Source of the DNA: an uncultured Actinomycetes bacterium
GTDB lineage: Bacteria > Actinomycetota > Thermoleophilia > UBA2241
Assembly: GCA_963709345.1 (NCBI GenBank)
Contig: CAVPVX010000002.1
Span: forward strand, 192,001 to 256,000
Direction: 5' to 3'
Length of the DNA stretch: 64,000 nt
The position numbers were made by a program, and so were the translations under genes. Positions 33,367 to 39,932 of this stretch are shown here, piece after piece (position 1 is the first letter of the stretch; each line of letters opens with the position of its first letter). The notes beneath the pieces are model-generated. The model was not told where the DNA came from. It saw nothing but the letters and a program-made list of their open reading frames with translations, and ran no database searches.

Positions 33367-35169
33367 CTAGGAGCGAAGCCTGCGGACGGCGATCGACACC
33401 GAGCCGAGCCCCACATGCGTCGTGAGTACGGCGCCGGCGCGCACGACGGGCACGTCGCCACCGAGGTACTTGCGCAGACGGGCAGCCACGAACTCCGCGC
33501 CGGCCTCGTCGCCGCTGTGCACGACCATGGCGCGCGCGGGAGCGCCGGCGGCGTAGCGGACGGTGCGCTTGACGATGGCGTTCAGGGCGCGGTCGAATCC
33601 CAGCGCTGCGCCCCCCTTGCCTGCTTTGCCCGTCTCGTCGAACACGATGATCGGCGCCAGTTTCAGCCGCCCGAGCGTGCGCGCCAGACGCGGGCTCACG
33701 CGGCCGCCACGAACGGCGAAATCAAGCGACGCGACGGTGCCGAAGATGCGGATGTCGCGCTTGACGCGCTCGGCGACCGCCTCGACCTCGTCCAGGCTCT
33801 CGCCGGCGGCGATGGCTTCGCCGATCGCCTCAACGAGCAGTCCCGCACCGACGGAGACGCCACACGAGTCGATCACGCGGACGCGCTGCGGGTCGACCTC
33901 ACGCATTGCGGCTCGGGCGGACTGGACCGTGCCCGACATCGCGCCGGCGATGTGCACCGAGACGACGCCTTCACGGTACTCCAGCAGCCGGCGGTAGGTG
34001 CCGACGAAGTCGGCGACCGCCGGCTGGGACGACCGCGGGACTCCCGTACCGGCGACGATACGCTGGATGAACCCGTCGAGAGTGATGTCGACGCCGTCGA
34101 GGTACTCCTCGTCGCCGAGCGACAGCGTGAGCGGTACGGCGACGACGCCAAGCGCGAAGGCCGTCTCTTCCGGCAGGTCCGTGGTCGAGTCGGTGACGAT
34201 CGCGAGCGCCGACTCGCGCCCGGCAAGCTGCTGAAGCACCATATCGTCGATCTTGCTCCGCTCGATGGCCCCGAGCTCGGCAACCGACGCCAGGAAGTGC
34301 TGGGGCTCGTTCGTGTGGATGTGGACGCGGAGCCTGGTTTCGCCGCCGGCGACCACCAGCGAGTCGCCCAGACCCAGCACGCGAGCCATGACGGCGTCGC
34401 GCGAGAGAGTCGCCCCGTCACGCGGCGTCAGGAGCGCCTCGGTGCAGAAGCGGTAGGTGTCGTCGATCTCGACGTGATCGGCCGAGAACGGCGGCAGCCC
34501 ATGCGGCGAGGCCTCCGTCGGCACCCAGGCGGCCTCGTGGCCGCCGCGCAGGGAATCCATGAATCCCTCGAGGAAGTACACGAATCCCTGGCCGCCGGCG
34601 TCGACGACGCGGCTACGGGCGAGCACCTCGAGCTGCCGGGGCGTGGCGGCAAGGGCTTCGCGCGCCGCCACCAGCCCGCTGTGCATCAGGTCGGTGAAGT
34701 CCTCCTCGTGAGCCCGGCGGCCGAGCTCGTGCGACCACGCCTTGAGCACCGAGAGGATCGTCCCCTCGCGAGGATCCTGCAGGGCCGAGTAGGCCGACTC
34801 CGTGCCCCTCAGCGCAGCGTCGGCGAACTGTGGCCCGTCGACGCGTTGCAGGCGCTCCAGAGAGCCGGCGAGGCCGTGGAGGAACTGGGCGAAGATCGCG
34901 CCGGAGTTGCCGCGCGCGCCGTCGAGAGCGCCGTCGGCGGCGGCTCTTGCCGCGGCGCCCACCGCGTCGGGAGCGGCGCTCCCGAGGCGAGAGGCCGCCG
35001 CTTTGAGGGTCGCCGCGAGATTGGCGCCGGTGTCGGCGTCACGGACCGGGAAGACGTTGATGCGGTTGAGCGACTCCTGCTCGCGGACCACGGCGAGCGC
35101 GCCGGCACGCATCACACGCGAGAACACCGGGCCGTTCATCGTGCCGGCATCGTCGAGCACTCGAGCCAT
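33367..35169 (-). CDS. DAK2-DegV fusion (fatty acid kinase FakA/FakB-like)
   Basis: N-terminal LN.INVFPV.D.DTG.N, GARGNSG, VDAGG.G; C-terminal IVTDST.DLP, SSQP, MSGT..SA, THVG. Confidence 0.85.
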   Translation of the reverse strand: MARVLDDAGTMNGPVFSRVMRAGALAVVREQESLNRINVFPVRDADTGANLAATLKAAASRLGSAAPDAVGAAARAAADGALDGARGNSGAIFAQFLHGLAGSLERLQRVDGPQFADAALRGTESAYSALQDPREGTILSVLKAWSHELGRRAHEEDFTDLMHSGLVAAREALAATPRQLEVLARSRVVDAGGQGFVYFLEGFMDSLRGGHEAAWVPTEASPHGLPPFSADHVEIDDTYRFCTEALLTPRDGATLSRDAVMARVLGLGDSLVVAGGETRLRVHIHTNEPQHFLASVAELGAIERSKIDDMVLQQLAGRESALAIVTDSTTDLPEETAFALGVVAVPLTLSLGDEEYLDGVDITLDGFIQRIVAGTGVPRSSQPAVADFVGTYRRLLEYREGVVSVHIAGAMSGTVQSARAAMREVDPQRVRVIDSCGVSVGAGLLVEAIGEAIAAGESLDEVEAVAERVKRDIRIFGTVASLDFAVRGGRVSPRLARTLGRLKLAPIIVFDETGKAGKGGAALGFDRALNAIVKRTVRYAAGAPARAMVVHSGDEAGAEFVAARLRKYLGGDVPVVRAGAVLTTHVGLGSVSIAVRRLRS

Positions 35170-35268: not shown

Positions 35269-35775
35269 TCAGCCCACCGGAGGCGCTCCGATGGCCTTCA
35301 GCGCCTTGCGCGCCTCCGCGGCGACGTGAGCGTCAGGGTCGCCGAGCGCACGCCGCAGCGTGTCGGCGGCCGCCGGGTCGCCGATGCCGCCGAGGGCCTG
35401 GACGCAGAGCAGTCGCAGCAACGCATCGGGGTTGTGCATGGCGACGCACAGCGGCTTGACGGCGACAGGGTCACCCATCTTGCCGAGAACGTAGGCGGCG
35501 TCCTGGCGACGATGAAGGTGTCCTTCCTTGAGAACGAAGATCAGACGATCGCGAGCCGGCGGCCCGATGAGGATGAGCGCCTCGCGCGACGTGTTGAGTT
35601 GGACCATGTTCTTGGTCTGCAGGCGCTGGATGATCTTGTCCAGATAGCTCTCAAGAGACTGGAGCGCAGCCTCGCGAATGGCAGGGTCCTTCTTGTACTT
35701 GGCGGCGCGCACGAGGCCGTCGATCTTGCCGGCGGCGTCGAGCTTGGCCACGTTCGGTGGGCCGAACAACCCCAC
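35269..35775 (-). CDS. HEAT/PBS-lyase repeat protein
   Basis: GLFGPPNV.KL, R..AA..LG.MGD..AV..L, ALG.IGD..A..L..AL.D.D..V. Confidence 0.75.
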   Translation of the reverse strand: MGLFGPPNVAKLDAAGKIDGLVRAAKYKKDPAIREAALQSLESYLDKIIQRLQTKNMVQLNTSREALILIGPPARDRLIFVLKEGHLHRRQDAAYVLGKMGDPVAVKPLCVAMHNPDALLRLLCVQALGGIGDPAAADTLRRALGDPDAHVAAEARKALKAIGAPPVG

Positions 35776-35847
35776 GTGCGTCTCCTTTTTCACGGACCGG
35801 CGCCGCGACGGCACCCGAGGTGACAGTCTACCTCAGCCGGGCGTGGC

Positions 35848-36779
35848 CTACCGCAGGATCCGGTTGGCCACATCCAGGAGTCGTGCCGGGAGATCGCGGT
35901 AGGTCCGCACCGGGAAGACGTCGCCGTGCCCCGCATCGGCGAGCCGCCGGCACAGCCCCGGGTTCATCTTGTAGTCCTCGGTGAGCAGGACGAACAGCTT
36001 CGGGAAGCGATGGGCGAGCGGCAGCGGGTCGCCGCCGGCCGTGACGACGCCGTCGCTGATGAGCAGGCCGCTGCGCCGCGGGCTGCGGCCGCGCTCCAGT
36101 TCTGCTGCGCCGAGTTCCAGCGCGGCCGCGATGTTCGTGTAGCCGCGCACCGGCTGGTCGAGCATGCGTCGCACGACCTCCGTCGCGGGGTCGGGCACGT
36201 CGAGATGCGTCACGGCCGTCGCCTTGTCTTCGAACACGACCACCGACAGGTCCTCGGGGTGCAGCTTGAGCGCCAAGACCGCCGCGGCGACCGCGGCGAT
36301 GGCCATGTTCTCCCCCGACATGCTCAGCGACGTGTCGACCATGAGCACGACCTGGTGGCGGCGGTCGACCCGCCGCCGGACCACCCAGTCGCCCGGCTCC
36401 GGGTACGGCTTTCCGAGCAGGTTGTCGACCGTCGCCTCGACGTCGAGTTCGCCGGCGTACGGCTCGCGCAGCGGCTCGCGAATCGTGTGCGTGGCGCCCT
36501 TCAGCGGACCGACGAGGCGGGTGGCGCGCTGCAGCACAGCCCGCGCCGCCAGCCGCTCGGCGTAGAAGCGCAGGCCCGGGTCGCCGATGCGACAGCCGCT
36601 ACGCGTCAGGTTGATGGCGATCGTCCAGCCGTCGAGGTCGGGTACGTCGACGCGATAGCGATCGGCGAGCGCCGCGAGCGGTGCGTCGCCCGGAGGCGGC
36701 TCCGGCGCGCACGCCGGCAGCCCCCGGACCTCGACGCGCCCCTGGTGCCGCAGGCGCGCCCCGGAGAGGGCGCTCAGGC
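35848..36779 (-). CDS. VWA-domain module (CoxE-like), open in the -1 frame relative to the upstream AAA ATPase
   Basis: MIDAS DTSLSM; frame is open back through the AAA stop with no ATG/GTG/TTG upstream of 36537; that stretch is homologous to the linker of the fused paralog. Confidence 0.75.
36308..36537. repeat. 230-bp direct repeat, copy 1 (copy 2 at 38277-38506)
   Basis: Appears identical base-for-base by eye; flanks diverge. Confidence 0.85.
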
Positions 36780-36786
36780 TTTTGGG
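36756..36786 (-). promoter_or_regulatory. candidate programmed -1 ribosomal frameshift signal
   Basis: C CCA AAA heptamer in the correct phase, 6-nt spacer, then stem-loop GCGCCCU-CUCC-GGGGCGC. Confidence 0.6.
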
Positions 36787-37703
36787 GAGCCCGCGTCCGG
36801 CGCCAGCGCCACGTCCGGGTCTTCACCTCGCTCCAGAACCAGATCGAGGAGCTCGTCGAGGGCGGTGCCGAAGTCGGCGTCGATGTCGTCGCGCAGATCC
36901 ACGCGCGTCGTCAGAGCGGCTTCAGCCGCGCGGCGCAGCGTCTCGCGGCTCACCGGTCCGCAGGCGTCACGGTTCTCGGCCGAGAGCCGCTCGGCGATCG
37001 CCACCGTGGCGATGGCGCCCCGGACGGAGGCGCCTTTGCGAAAGCGCGGGTGCAGCCGCGTCGCCCGCGTGAGACGCACCGCGGTCTGCACCAGCGCCGC
37101 GTCACTCGAGCCCGTCTCGGCGACCACGATCGCCTGCTCCTCTTCGGCGCCCTGGTAGAGCAGGGCGAGGTGCTCGAAGCGATCGCGCAGCGCCTCCGAG
37201 AGGTGGCCGGTGGCGACGTACTCGACCGGGTTCTGCGTCGCCACCACCTGGAAGCCGTCGGCGGCACGCACCTCGCCGATGTGCGGCACCTGGACGAGGT
37301 GCTCGTCGAGCGCCGGCAACAGCACGTTCTGCACGGATTCGGGCATGCGGTTGAGCTCGTTGATGAAGAGCACGCGGCCGTCGCGCATCGCCTCGACCAA
37401 GGGGCCGGCGAAGAACGAGTCCTCACCGTACCCCTGCTTGAGCACCAGCGGTGGGTCGAACCAGCCGGTGAGCTTGCTCTCCGAATAGCGGTCGTCCCCG
37501 TCGACGCGCACCGTCTCGCGGCCGAGGTGGCTGCAGACGGCCAGAGCGACGGTCGTCTTGCCGACGCCCACTGGCCCCTCGAGCAGAAGGTGTCTGCCGG
37601 TCCCGAGCACGGCAAGGGCCGTCGCCAGTTCGCTCTCGCGCCCGACGATGCCGTGCTGCCGCTGGATGCTCTCGATGGGGGTCACGCGCTCCTCCTCGTC
37701 CAC
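36774..37703 (-). CDS. MoxR-family AAA+ ATPase
   Basis: HLLLEGPVGVGKT, F.INELNR, QN.LL.ALDE, VVATQNP.E, LSEAL.DRF. Confidence 0.88.
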   Translation of the reverse strand: MDEEERVTPIESIQRQHGIVGRESELATALAVLGTGRHLLLEGPVGVGKTTVALAVCSHLGRETVRVDGDDRYSESKLTGWFDPPLVLKQGYGEDSFFAGPLVEAMRDGRVLFINELNRMPESVQNVLLPALDEHLVQVPHIGEVRAADGFQVVATQNPVEYVATGHLSEALRDRFEHLALLYQGAEEEQAIVVAETGSSDAALVQTAVRLTRATRLHPRFRKGASVRGAIATVAIAERLSAENRDACGPVSRETLRRAAEAALTTRVDLRDDIDADFGTALDELLDLVLERGEDPDVALAPDAGSPKA

Positions 37704-37789
37704 TGCCGTCCCGGCTGCGCTCGCCCACAGCGGGGACGACCGCCCTGCCAGTCTACCAACGCCCGGGGCCCGTCACAGCCCGCGGGCGG

Positions 37790-39664
37790 CTACCGCAAGA
37801 CCGCGTCGGCCACCTCGAGCATACGTCGCGGCAGCGCGGCAAAGCCGCTCACCCGCACCACCCCCCCGTCGCTCGCCCGCGCGACGGCCTCCCCGACCGC
37901 ACGTCGCGGCGAGATCCACACGCCTTCTCCGCTCGAGAGAGGCTCGTCCACGAGCAGGACGTGCAGCGCCCCGAACGACGCCGCCGCGGCACGGGGATCG
38001 GGACCGACCGTGTACACGCAGTCACTGACGAGCAGGCCGCTGCGACGCGGATCGCGGCCACGCCGCAACTCGGCGTGGCCGCGCTCGAGCGCGGCGGCGA
38101 TATGCGTCCCGCCACCGCACGGCGACGACAGCATGCGCCGCACGAATTCCGTGGGCGCCACGGACTCCCCGAAGCGGGAGATCGTACGCGCCTCGCCGGC
38201 GAAGAGCACGACGGAGAGATCGCCCGCATGCAGCTTGAGCGCCAGCACGGTCGCCGCCACCGTCGCCAGCGCCATCTTCTCCCCCGACATGCTCAGCGAC
38301 GTGTCGACCATGAGCACGACCTGGTGGCGGCGGTCGACCCGCCGCCGGACCACCCAGTCGCCCGGCTCCGGGTACGGCTTTCCGAGCAGGTTGTCGACCG
38401 TCGCCTCGACGTCGAGTTCGCCGGCGTACGGCTCGCGCAGCGGCTCGCGAATCGTGTGCGTGGCGCCCTTCAGCGGACCGACGAGGCGGGTGGCGCGCTG
38501 CAGCACGGCTCCGGCCGCGAGACGCTGGGCGCAGGCTTCCACGCGTGCGCCGGCCCCGCTCACCTCGCCGGCGCTGAGGGCGCCGGCCAGCCACCAGCCG
38601 TCGAGCTCTTCCACCGGCAGGCGCAGATGATCGGCCAGAGATCGCCGGTCGTCCAGCGCGTACGCGGGGGCGGCGTCGGCGGTCGTCGACCTGGATGCGG
38701 GCACTGGCGGCGCCCCCTGCGCCTCCCGGCGTACCTCCGCTCCTCCGTCCCGGCCCTCCGGGGGGGCGGCAGCCACGACGGCGTCCGGGTCTTCGCCGCG
38801 GTCGACGACCTTCGCCAGGACGTCGTCGAGCACGCCGGCGACGTCGAGGACGGCGCCGTCACGCACCTCGACGCGAGTCGTGAGGGCGGTGTGGACCGCG
38901 CGGCGCAGCATCTCGCGGCCGGTCCCGGCCTTGACGCGCTCCCCCTCGAGCCTCTCGGCGACGGCCACGGTGGCCGACGCGCCGCGCACCGAGGCTCCGC
39001 TATGAAGTTCGGGGTGCACACGCGTCGCCCGCGTGAGCCGCACGGCCGTGCGCACGAGCGCCGCGTTCGCGGAGCCGGTGTCCGCAGCCACGATGGCCGC
39101 CTCCTCGCCGGCGCTCTGATAGCCGAGGGCGAGGTGCTCGAAGCGGTCACGAAGCGCCTCCGAGAGCCCCCCTGTGGCCACGCGCTCCCCGGGATTCGCC
39201 GTCGCCACCACGAGAAAGCCCTGCGCAGCCCGCACATCGCCAAGACCCGGGACCTGTACCAGGCCCTCGTCGAGCGCGGGCAGGAGCACGTTCTGCACCG
39301 GCTCGGGCATGCGGTCGAGATCGTTGACGAGCAGAACGCCTCCGCTGCGCATCGCAGCCACCAGAGGGCCGGGCGAGAAGGAGTGCTCCCCGTAGCCGCG
39401 CACGAGCACGAGCGGCGGCTCGAACCAGCCGACGAGCCTGCTCACGGAGTAGCCGCCGTCGCCGTCGACGCGCAGCGTCGCGCGACCGAGGCCGTCGCAG
39501 ACGGCCAGCGCCACCGTCGTCTTGCCCACGCCGACCGGACCCTCGAGGAGCAGATGCCGCTCCCCGGCCAGAACCGCGCGGGCGATCGCAAGCTCCCTGT
39601 TACGCCCCACGATCACGCGCGGCGGCGGGACGGCCGCTCCCGCGCTCAGAACGTCGGCGTTCAC
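37790..39664 (-). CDS. in-frame MoxR AAA+ - VWA fusion protein
   Basis: EGPVGVGKT, LLVNDLDR, LSEALRDRF, linker, DTSLSM MIDAS, GGTHIAAAL. Confidence 0.85.
   Translation of the reverse strand: MNADVLSAGAAVPPPRVIVGRNRELAIARAVLAGERHLLLEGPVGVGKTTVALAVCDGLGRATLRVDGDGGYSVSRLVGWFEPPLVLVRGYGEHSFSPGPLVAAMRSGGVLLVNDLDRMPEPVQNVLLPALDEGLVQVPGLGDVRAAQGFLVVATANPGERVATGGLSEALRDRFEHLALGYQSAGEEAAIVAADTGSANAALVRTAVRLTRATRVHPELHSGASVRGASATVAVAERLEGERVKAGTGREMLRRAVHTALTTRVEVRDGAVLDVAGVLDDVLAKVVDRGEDPDAVVAAAPPEGRDGGAEVRREAQGAPPVPASRSTTADAAPAYALDDRRSLADHLRLPVEELDGWWLAGALSAGEVSGAGARVEACAQRLAAGAVLQRATRLVGPLKGATHTIREPLREPYAGELDVEATVDNLLGKPYPEPGDWVVRRRVDRRHQVVLMVDTSLSMSGEKMALATVAATVLALKLHAGDLSVVLFAGEARTISRFGESVAPTEFVRRMLSSPCGGGTHIAAALERGHAELRRGRDPRRSGLLVSDCVYTVGPDPRAAAASFGALHVLLVDEPLSSGEGVWISPRRAVGEAVARASDGGVVRVSGFAALPRRMLEVADAVLR
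38277..38506. repeat. 230-bp direct repeat, copy 2
   Basis: Matches 36308-36537. Confidence 0.85.
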
Positions 39665-39932
39665 GTCACGCCCCTCGCGCGAGGCACGGCGAGATCACGG
39701 CGGTGTGTCGCGTTCTGTCCGCACCCGTTCTCATGAGGCGCCTCCGTGAAGATGGTCGCAGAGTCGCACAGGTTCCCTCAGTATCGTGCGCAATCACACA
39801 CACAGTCAACGATGGCCCGCTCCCACGCCGCCCACCCCGCCGCCGCGCGCCCGAGCCGCGCGATCGTGCGACGATCGGCTACTGCGACGTCGGGTATCGC
39901 CGCACACCCGCCTGCCGTACACTTCTGGGGTG

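Follow-up and report, generated by a model that had tools for sequence, protein, structure and literature searches.

In a 64,000-nucleotide (nt) stretch of DNA from an uncultured bacterium of the class Thermoleophilia (hereafter the window; G000:C2:192001-256000 of a 3.1-Mb assembly that is 98% complete; G+C 69.5%), a gene for a MoxR-class AAA+ ATPase runs into an overlapping -1 reading frame that encodes a VWA domain, and the AAA/VWA junction very probably carries a functional programmed -1 frameshift site. The site and its phase are conserved deeply, and the -1 frame is constrained as coding sequence from the slip site onward. Both the occurrence of slippage and its rate are matters that we infer from these sequence features. 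Examination of sequencing error, of the orthologs and of a possible VWA start codon at the junction in each case favored recoding, in support of the original prediction made for this DNA.

The 0-frame open reading frame (ORF) (36774-37703; this and all other features described herein lie on the minus strand) encodes 309 amino acids (aa) with a Pfam AAA_5 match (E 2e-23, 83.4 bits versus a cut-off of 22). Its Walker A motif or P-loop, GPVGVGKT (37554-37577), includes residues G43, G46, K49, and T51 that are invariant in an 11-sequence alignment. Two in-frame GTG codons (37683-37703) are candidates for the start of the gene, and because the second, at 37685, is preceded by GAGGAGGAG, the short product may comprise 303 rather than 309 aa. 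The ORF ends, as originally described, with TCC CCA AAA GCC TGA (S-P-K-A), which places a slippery heptamer, C_CCA_AAA (36780-36786), in X_XXY_YYZ phase over the 0-frame codons CCA AAA, one codon ahead of the TGA (36774-36776) that ends the short product. The sequence CCCAAAA occurs only once in the window, with both strands counted. Both codons are rare in the eight Pfam-supported ORFs of the window, where CCA accounts for 4.7% of Pro codons and AAA for 10.9% of Lys codons, such that Pro-Lys would be written CCA AAA with an expectation of about 0.5% under window codon usage. The stem-loop reported to begin 6 nt past the heptamer is likewise present (36756-36773), with a GC-rich 7-base-pair (bp) stem (GCGCCCT/GGGGCGC; six G-C pairs and one G-U) and a 4-nt loop, and it is a candidate frameshift stimulator.

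The -1 frame (35848-36786) consists of 312 codons and a stop, and encodes a linker followed by a VWA domain with a metal-ion-dependent adhesion site (MIDAS). In agreement with the claim that this frame opens shortly before the site and lacks a start for about 80 codons thereafter, it opens 12 codons upstream of the heptamer (46 nt upstream of the 0-frame stop), and its first ATG, GTG, or TTG lies 239 nt past that stop and 83 codons past the slip site. Its product matches the Pfam families VWA_CoxE (44 bits, cut-off 26.4) and VWA_2, both above their cut-offs. An AlphaFold2 model of this product (based on 32 sequences) has a mean predicted local distance difference test score (pLDDT) of 88.9 and a predicted template modeling score of 0.83. 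The start of the linker (36718-36779) is predicted to be disordered, with residues 1-23 below a pLDDT of 50, as is expected of a linker. The top fold matches are NorD VWA chains in NorQD complexes (E about 1e-9), and a sequence search of the VWA part against the Protein Data Bank (PDB) gave no match at E up to 1. The DxSxS motif (D151, S153, and S155 of the -1 product; 36322-36336), together with T217 and D245, is invariant in 32 diverse -1-frame products and constitutes a complete MIDAS (DxSxS...T...D).

Directly upstream lies a tandem paralog (37790-39664), an in-frame AAA-VWA fusion of 624 aa that has no slippery site. With the first half of this paralog, the AAA ORF shares 69% identity, and the homology of the -1 frame to the fusion was confirmed, with 60% identity to the second half beginning at residue 39 of the -1 product (paralog residue 342). 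The shifted product is predicted to comprise 308 + 310 = 618 aa, the length given originally. Because in-frame fusions exist in the same family, including this neighboring paralog, and because the MIDAS residues are invariant, a long product of this type is plausible.

Given this arrangement, we propose that the AAA gene and the VWA frame form a single recoded gene. Most ribosomes would read CCA AAA GCC and stop at TGA, yielding the 309-aa MoxR-class ATPase. A minority would slip back one base on C_CCA_AAA, whereupon the P- and A-site tRNAs would re-pair on CCC AAA, and the GC-rich hairpin 6 nt downstream would probably aid the slip. Shifted ribosomes would then continue via the flexible linker into the VWA/MIDAS domain to produce the long protein (about 618 aa). 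The two products might co-assemble into a ring composed mostly of short subunits with few VWA arms.

Recoding would thereby supply a ring with a minority of VWA-bearing subunits, in line with the original suggestion that recoding sets the hexamer:adaptor stoichiometry. This proposal is made by analogy to the reported ratio of one NorD per NorQ hexamer (PMC9976466), to CbbQ/CbbO, and to ChlI/ChlD, for which the same subunit-ratio argument was made by Antonov and colleagues (PMC9227772). A predicted complex between the AAA protein and the VWA part (residues 30-312) scored 0.07 compared to a mark of 0.32, which is evidence neither way.

Conservation and coding constraint within the genus

A six-frame search found the family in 59 of 61 genomes. 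Besides the genome of the window, the genus is represented in this set by 36 genomes, and 35 of them have the family. With same-genus junctions anchored on the AAA stop, 39 proved to have 100 aa or more of -1 ORF past it. In 33 of these 39, the octamer CCCAAAAG is located exactly at positions -10 to -3 from the stop. The octamer is invariant among all 33, and the flanking columns are 40-90% conserved. The codon ahead of it specifies S, A, V, P, or R, with C as the third base throughout, and the stop may be TGA, TAG, or TAA at the same spacing to the heptamer. Of the six exceptions, one (L006) is where a fused paralog ends, four (L042, L048, L016, and L024) are loci at which the AAA frame reads on via other frame changes, and the last (L049) is a distant relative with a run of A's. 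Thus, the orthologs are neither simply fused nor normally started, but retain the heptamer, the -1 phase, and the nearby stop.

Substitution patterns were examined in 21 orthologs selected for AAA identity of at least 85%. In the -1 frame, the ratio of nonsynonymous to synonymous substitution rates (dN/dS) equals 0.41 across codons +2 to +13 and 0.38 across codons +14 to +38. Values in the other frames range from 1.3 to 1.7 overall and from 1.4 to 1.5 over codons +2 to +13. The -1 frame is therefore under purifying selection from the slip site onward, including the region encoding the disordered linker. The -1 frame of the same-genus orthologs lacks a conserved start codon. A CTG overlapping the TGA is present in all 21 close orthologs, but is CTA or GTA in orthologs with a TAG or TAA stop, where the heptamer is kept, and for this reason CTG is ruled out as a conserved start. 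The possibility raised originally that the VWA frame initiates at this codon is accordingly improbable.

Several features of the RNA downstream of the heptamer bear on a possible stimulatory structure. The 32 nt past the heptamer in the window fold with -16.6 kcal/mol, and only 4% of windows from the same gene are as stable or more so. Across the 33 same-genus junctions the median rank of this segment against gene background is 0.08, with 21 at or below 0.10. Two hairpin types occur in the genus, starting either 6 nt (as in the window) or 14 nt past the heptamer. In other genera of the same family (f1), a hairpin directly follows the stop, and its stem sequence varies by genus while pairing is kept. 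Examples include GCCCCCC/GGGGGGC, GGGACGC/GCGTCCC, a 9-bp stem of CGGCCGCCG/CGGCGGCCG with a variable loop, and a 12-bp stem in g23. Among 109 heptamer-bearing junctions in the wider collection described below, a perfect stem of at least 6 bp lies 4-9 nt (mostly 6 nt) past the heptamer in 60, and one of at least 7 bp in 45. A-run sites mostly have no stem. The position of the hairpin tracks the heptamer rather than the stop, lying about 6 nt past G_GGA_AAA wherever the stop occurs. Shine-Dalgarno-like tetramers are found upstream of 24 of 69 sites versus a background of 16%, and there is none in the window.

We regard the hairpin in the window as likely to be stimulatory, although a family-wide role for such structures is not established. 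A single conserved hairpin was considered and rejected after RNAalifold analysis of same-genus junctions (see below); the structures are lineage-specific. The expectation that orthologs would keep the heptamer, hairpin, and -1 phase is thus borne out for the heptamer and the phase, but not for the hairpin as one structure.

Junction types in the wider family

The -1 product was used to search 401 genomes of the class, and matches were found in 73 of 79 genomes of family f1, 9 of 61 of family f4, and 3 of 28 of family f5, with none in the nine other families sampled. Forty further junction regions from this search were inspected. Other f1 genera carry C_CCA_AAA or A_AAA_AAA at the same place. 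In family f4 (35% AAA identity; L049 and L082-L087, which include other families of the class), the junction carries a run of nine A's. A TAA at the first bases of this run closes the -1 frame, and the -1 ORF therefore opens exactly at the slip site. One additional locus (L081) has an A-run interrupted by G. At another (L071 in G202), the two halves are genuinely fused in frame.

A scan of one genome per species yielded 79 loci from more distant taxa. Acidimicrobiia and many Actinomycetes carry G_GGA_AAA at 3 to 45 nt upstream of the stop, and representatives from Bdellovibrionota, Oligoflexia, and Armatimonadia have runs of 9-10 A's at the junction. In the Pseudonocardia group (L115-L120), the heptamer is T_TTT_TTC; it precedes the stop by 36 nt and is followed, after 5-7 nt, by a hairpin of 7 bp. 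When these 36 nt are read in the -1 frame, they restore the peptide H-F-[F/I/L]-L-x-P..A-A-P-G, which is encoded in the 0 frame in other Actinomycetes (the TGA-type relatives described below). This serves as an internal check that the shift takes place at the heptamer and not at the stop.

Pooling of the genus, family, class, and species-wide genome collections gave 146 distinct junctions at AAA ends. The VWA region is in the -1 frame in 116, in the 0 frame behind a stop in 24 (a TGA in 23), and otherwise arranged in 6. To be counted, a heptamer had to lie no more than 60 nt from the 0-frame stop and in the part of the -1 frame that is open. By this measure an in-phase slippery heptamer is present in 107 of the 116 -1 junctions: C_CCA_AAA in 46, A_AAA_AAA in 31, G_GGA_AAA in 23, T_TTT_TTC in 6, and A_AAT_TTT in 1. 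For comparison, the bodies of the AAA ORFs from the 76 wide-set loci with a stop contain 12 in-phase XXXYYYN sequences (Y = A or T) per 21,110 codons. This difference, together with the invariance of the octamer in 33 of 33 same-genus junctions despite its rare codons, indicates that the heptamer is conserved beyond the needs of the protein. All heptamers found fall within V_VVA_AAR or H_HHU_UUY, the most efficient heptamer classes in Escherichia coli (PMC4066793).

A different arrangement was observed in Microbacterium, Leucobacter, Kribbella, Modestobacter, Geodermatophilus, Rhodococcus, Citricoccus, and others, several of which are represented by cultured isolates. Here the VWA region follows in the same frame behind a conserved TGA (..A-A-P-G TGA R-A-V-E-A-D-S-P..) and has no conserved start. 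About 325-333 codons follow the TGA, and the first start codon falls between codon 3 and codon 89. These loci are L122, L127, L128, L130, L131, L138, L140, L145, L153, L160-L164, L167, L168, and L170 (with the junction at about 2350-2400 in each locus), and also L088 (G263). This junction looks like programmed UGA readthrough or an unusual re-start, and might represent a second recoding device in the same family.

AAA-domain trees were built by FastTree and rooted at the midpoint, and we claim no direction of change beyond nesting. With junctions assigned to eight states, a provisional tree of 152 rows requires a minimum of 33 state changes. On a separate tree, of which we use the Thermoleophilia part, the in-frame fused paralogs form one clade (9 rows, support 99) nested in a Thermoleophilia clade that otherwise carries C_CCA_AAA, a placement that is equally provisional.

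One broader possibility, for and against which we judge the case to be evenly balanced, is that the AAA/VWA boundary of the whole NorQ/NorD-like family (in Thermoleophilia, Acidimicrobiia, Actinomycetes, Bdellovibrionota, and others) is a recoding hot spot at which both a short and a long chain must be made from one message. Lineages might have exchanged one device for another repeatedly: a -1 shift, on C_CCA_AAA, G_GGA_AAA, A_AAA_AAA, or T_TTT_TTC with a different hairpin for each; a UGA in frame that would require readthrough; or fusion with duplication. The efficiency of the device would then set the number of VWA arms per AAA+ ring, as a general MoxR principle distinct from that of the chelatases.

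Alternative explanations and opposing evidence

The most ordinary alternative is that the locus consists of two genes and that the VWA protein is started by translational coupling, or termination-reinitiation, near the AAA stop, with initiation at a non-canonical codon such as the CTG over the TGA, or at a GTG farther downstream. In that case the -1 phase would simply reflect a common 4-nt overlap; overlaps of the ATGA or GTGA type generally produce this phase. The CTGA overlap in all 21 close orthologs, and a GTG at -1 codon 17 in 14 of them, fit this explanation. However, the CTG becomes CTA or GTA at TAG or TAA stops with the heptamer unchanged, and the window itself has GTC at codon 17 and 83 codons without a start. 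Purifying selection acts on the -1 frame directly past the heptamer, and coupling leaves the conserved rare codons CCA AAA unexplained. In other taxa the heptamer is up to 36-45 nt upstream of the stop with a homologous peptide encoded in the -1 frame across the gap, and in f4 the A-run opens with a TAA that closes the -1 frame. Thus, we consider coupling to be improbable. We assign a lower probability still to slippage by RNA polymerase, in which a base dropped from or added to an A-run in the transcript would place the VWA region in frame. The runs of 9-10 A's in Bdellovibrionota, Armatimonadia, and the f4 relatives are of a length that supports transcriptional slippage (above 7), as with Thermus dnaX (PMC3711429). 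However, only four A's are present in the window and in the 46 C_CCA_AAA junctions, and likewise in G_GGA_AAA, which is far below this length. Moreover, the strict X_XXY_YYZ phase and a hairpin at 6 nt are features of ribosomal rather than transcriptional slippage. From the single RNA run examined (X20), one unrelated-looking contig could be placed on the window, and it ends short of the junction.

Least probable of all, to the point of being negligible, is that the frame change is an artefact or a sign of decay, arising from a homopolymer error in CCCC or AAAA or from a recent mutation that broke a once-fused gene. Homopolymer indels are common in long-read metagenome-assembled genomes (MAGs), and extra frame changes are present elsewhere in these genes in G010, G015, G003, and G400. 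However, the identical arrangement is found at 33 of the 39 same-genus junctions and again in other genera, with the stop one codon past the heptamer throughout, and both halves are under purifying selection with the MIDAS and Walker A motifs intact. In addition, two metagenome contigs of close relatives, short-read assemblies from two other samples, bridge the site without gaps (X1 record 5, 36719-36971; X2 record 11, 36611-36858). Sequencing error, which was raised as a concern in the original prediction, can therefore be rejected. Among public sequencing runs compared to the window, none contained half or more of its words (best share 0.24). The extra frame changes themselves (L014/L041 in G003, L048/L016 in G010, L025/L052 in G015, and L060 in G400) are probably homopolymer indel errors of long-read assemblies, and call for caution in automated counts of frameshifts. 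The copy in G003 returns to the AAA frame about 82 codons past the slip site.

Several observations weigh against a functional programmed -1 frameshift site, or against parts of the evidence offered for it. Nine of the 116 -1 junctions lack a recognized heptamer. The pattern is broken in a few relatives, both of them MAGs: at L060 (in a 64%-complete MAG), one extra base downstream places the VWA region in the 0 frame behind a TGA, and in G003 there is a second frame change. Because the genomes are kin, the counts given above overstate independence, and they describe a pattern rather than constitute a test. Regarding the stimulator, about a third of same-genus junctions have their strong hairpin at 14 nt and not at 5-9 nt. 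RNAalifold, applied to 25 of the 32 unique same-genus junctions (L040, L041, L030, L046, L037, L015, and L053 gave no gap-free alignment), found no common structure, with five weak pairs and no compensatory changes. In the wider set, a 6-bp stem at the usual distance is missing from 49 of the 109 junctions, and the median rank against background is no better than 0.17. The GTG at codon 17 noted above might permit independent initiation in 14 of 21 orthologs. Finally, A_AAA is the weakest of six shift-prone tetramers in E. coli (PMC4066793).

Relation to known systems and genomic context

To our knowledge, conserved chromosomal -1 frameshifts outside mobile elements are few. Examples include those in dnaX, chlD, copA, and csoS2. 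An earlier study of frameshifted chlD was reportedly published by Antonov in 2020 in Molecular Biology and Evolution (MBE). The precedent cited in the original prediction, wherein chlD-type genes yield a short AAA+ and a long AAA+-VWA subunit by a -1 shift, is borne out by the literature (Antonov et al. 2013, PMC3711429; Kuznetsov/Antonov 2022, PMC9227772). Shifts in genes termed "magnesium chelatase" were found at A-rich sites with efficiencies of 10-63% in E. coli reporters (PMC3711429, PMC5009743), and were interpreted as producing the small and medium chelatase subunits from one frameshifted chlD (fs-chlD) gene (PMC9227772). Such genes, defined by tBLASTn at E 1e-6, occur in actinobacteria and in genomes without the large subunit (PMC9227772).

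Among known systems, that in the window comes closest to fs-chlD, in that a short AAA+ protein would be made by termination and a long AAA+-linker-VWA protein by a -1 shift, from a slippery site with a downstream structure. In both systems, fused versions exist in other genomes and some carriers have no large chelatase subunit. In contrast to fs-chlD, the AAA module here is AAA_5/NorQ-like rather than ChlI-like, no CobN/ChlH was found in the genome, and C_CCA_AAA with a GC hairpin takes the place of the poly-A runs described for fs-chlD. By the comparisons of sequence and fold made here, the family resembles NorQ/NorD rather than ChlI/ChlD. The AAA half of the paralog matches PDB sequences of midasin AAA modules (E 4e-27), NorQ (1e-14), and CbbQ (3e-6), and no ChlI, BchI, or BchD chain is among its matches. 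Chelatase profiles gave only low scores: 22 bits for PF01078 with no stretch passing, 17 bits versus 499 for TIGR02031 (BchD-ChlD), and 19-22 bits versus 779 for TIGR02442. NCBIfam matches to GvpN, MadB, and chelatases are all sub-threshold. The large chelatase subunit CobN/ChlH (PF02514) was not found in the 98%-complete genome of the window, in a search whose positive controls matched in 5 of 14 genomes. PADLOC likewise returned only weak matches (mad8, 21 bits) and no assignment to a defense system.

By AAA sequence (NorQ) and VWA fold (NorD), and by the complete MIDAS, the nearest solved relatives are NorQ/NorD and CbbQ/CbbO. In those systems, however, the partners are encoded by separate genes with their own starts, whereas here a covalent link would join the adaptor to one ATPase subunit. 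Further distinctions are the lack of client genes near the locus and the Walker B sequence. The usual form of Walker B is D-E (hhhhDE), and the frameshift gene has N-E (..FINE..; 37350-37370), with E116 invariant in the 11-sequence alignment, whereas the fused paralog has N-D (..VND..). ChlD/BchD is said to be a degenerate ATPase, and the paralog may be one as well. As with dnaX, whose products are tau and gamma, a chromosomal -1 shift on a V_VVA_AAR-type heptamer with a hairpin would produce two subunits of one AAA+ assembly; some dnaX lineages use A-runs instead (PMC3711429). Unlike E. coli dnaX, where the shifted product is short, the shift here would make the long product, as in an alternative dnaX organization (PMC3711429), and the protein families are unrelated beyond the AAA+ fold. 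Midasin/Rea1, the best AAA sequence match, also combines AAA_5 modules and MIDAS/VWA in one polypeptide, but is a eukaryotic giant with six AAA modules per chain and no recoding.

No prior report of frameshifting in MoxR-VWA genes was found in the literature searched, for which the GeneTack and Chelatase DB tables and supplements were outside the scope. The available text of a preprint (10.1101/2025.10.02.679949) contains no VWA, chelatase, or ATPase term, and that of a review mentions only chelatase (PMC5009743). A -1 shift that adds a VWA half to an AAA+ half is a kind of event already known, and the NorQ/NorD-like family as its carrier is new to the literature searched. However, the tBLASTn-defined "chlD" set of Antonov may already include some members of this family.

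If the proposed recoding is true, it adds a deeply conserved and taxonomically broad -1 frameshift in a different AAA+ clade, and makes available a naturally occurring set of slippery sites and hairpins, interchangeable with one another, in which the evolution of recoding signals can be studied. It also suggests a MoxR ring with a covalently attached, sub-stoichiometric MIDAS adaptor, which bears on client engagement by remodelers of the NorQD/CbbQO type. Gene-calling programs divide such genes in two and have to assign an artificial start to the VWA part, so that annotations and protein databases probably contain the VWA protein in truncated form and lack the long product.

The tandem layout, with a fused paralog followed by the split gene, recurs in other genomes, including G029, G012, G034, G002, and G033. 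In the window, a 230-nt tract of the -1 frame (36308-36537) is 100% identical to the paralog (38277-38506), whereas the remainder of the two genes is about 70-74% identical. The tract codes for the MIDAS DxSxS motif and the residues immediately ahead of it, and is probably the product of recent gene conversion, with an assembly artefact as the alternative. A consensus scan of positions 35700-39900 revealed no promoter-like or terminator-like site at the AAA/VWA junction. The sole sigma-70-like promoter match in this region (39780-39809) is upstream of the fused paralog.

The original description of the gene product as a MoxR/CoxE-like chaperone stands with regard to the AAA_5 and VWA_CoxE matches, where CoxE is a family label only, but a client gene is not evident in the neighborhood. 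Specifically, there is no shared client gene and no nor, cbb, or cox gene in the three neighborhoods annotated, with locus L175 covered in part. Neighbors in the window include DegV/Dak2, AlaDH/PNT, PntB, a xylose-isomerase-like TIM barrel protein, and an amidohydrolase. The set in a g22 genome is similar, and that in a g25 genome comprises TauE, DUF1634, and Band 7. Directly downstream of the VWA frame is an ORF of 600 aa (33367-35169) in which Dak2, a FakA-like middle region, and DegV are combined, a fusion of the fatty-acid kinase A-B type. A DegV ORF is found on the corresponding side in the g22 genome (L174).

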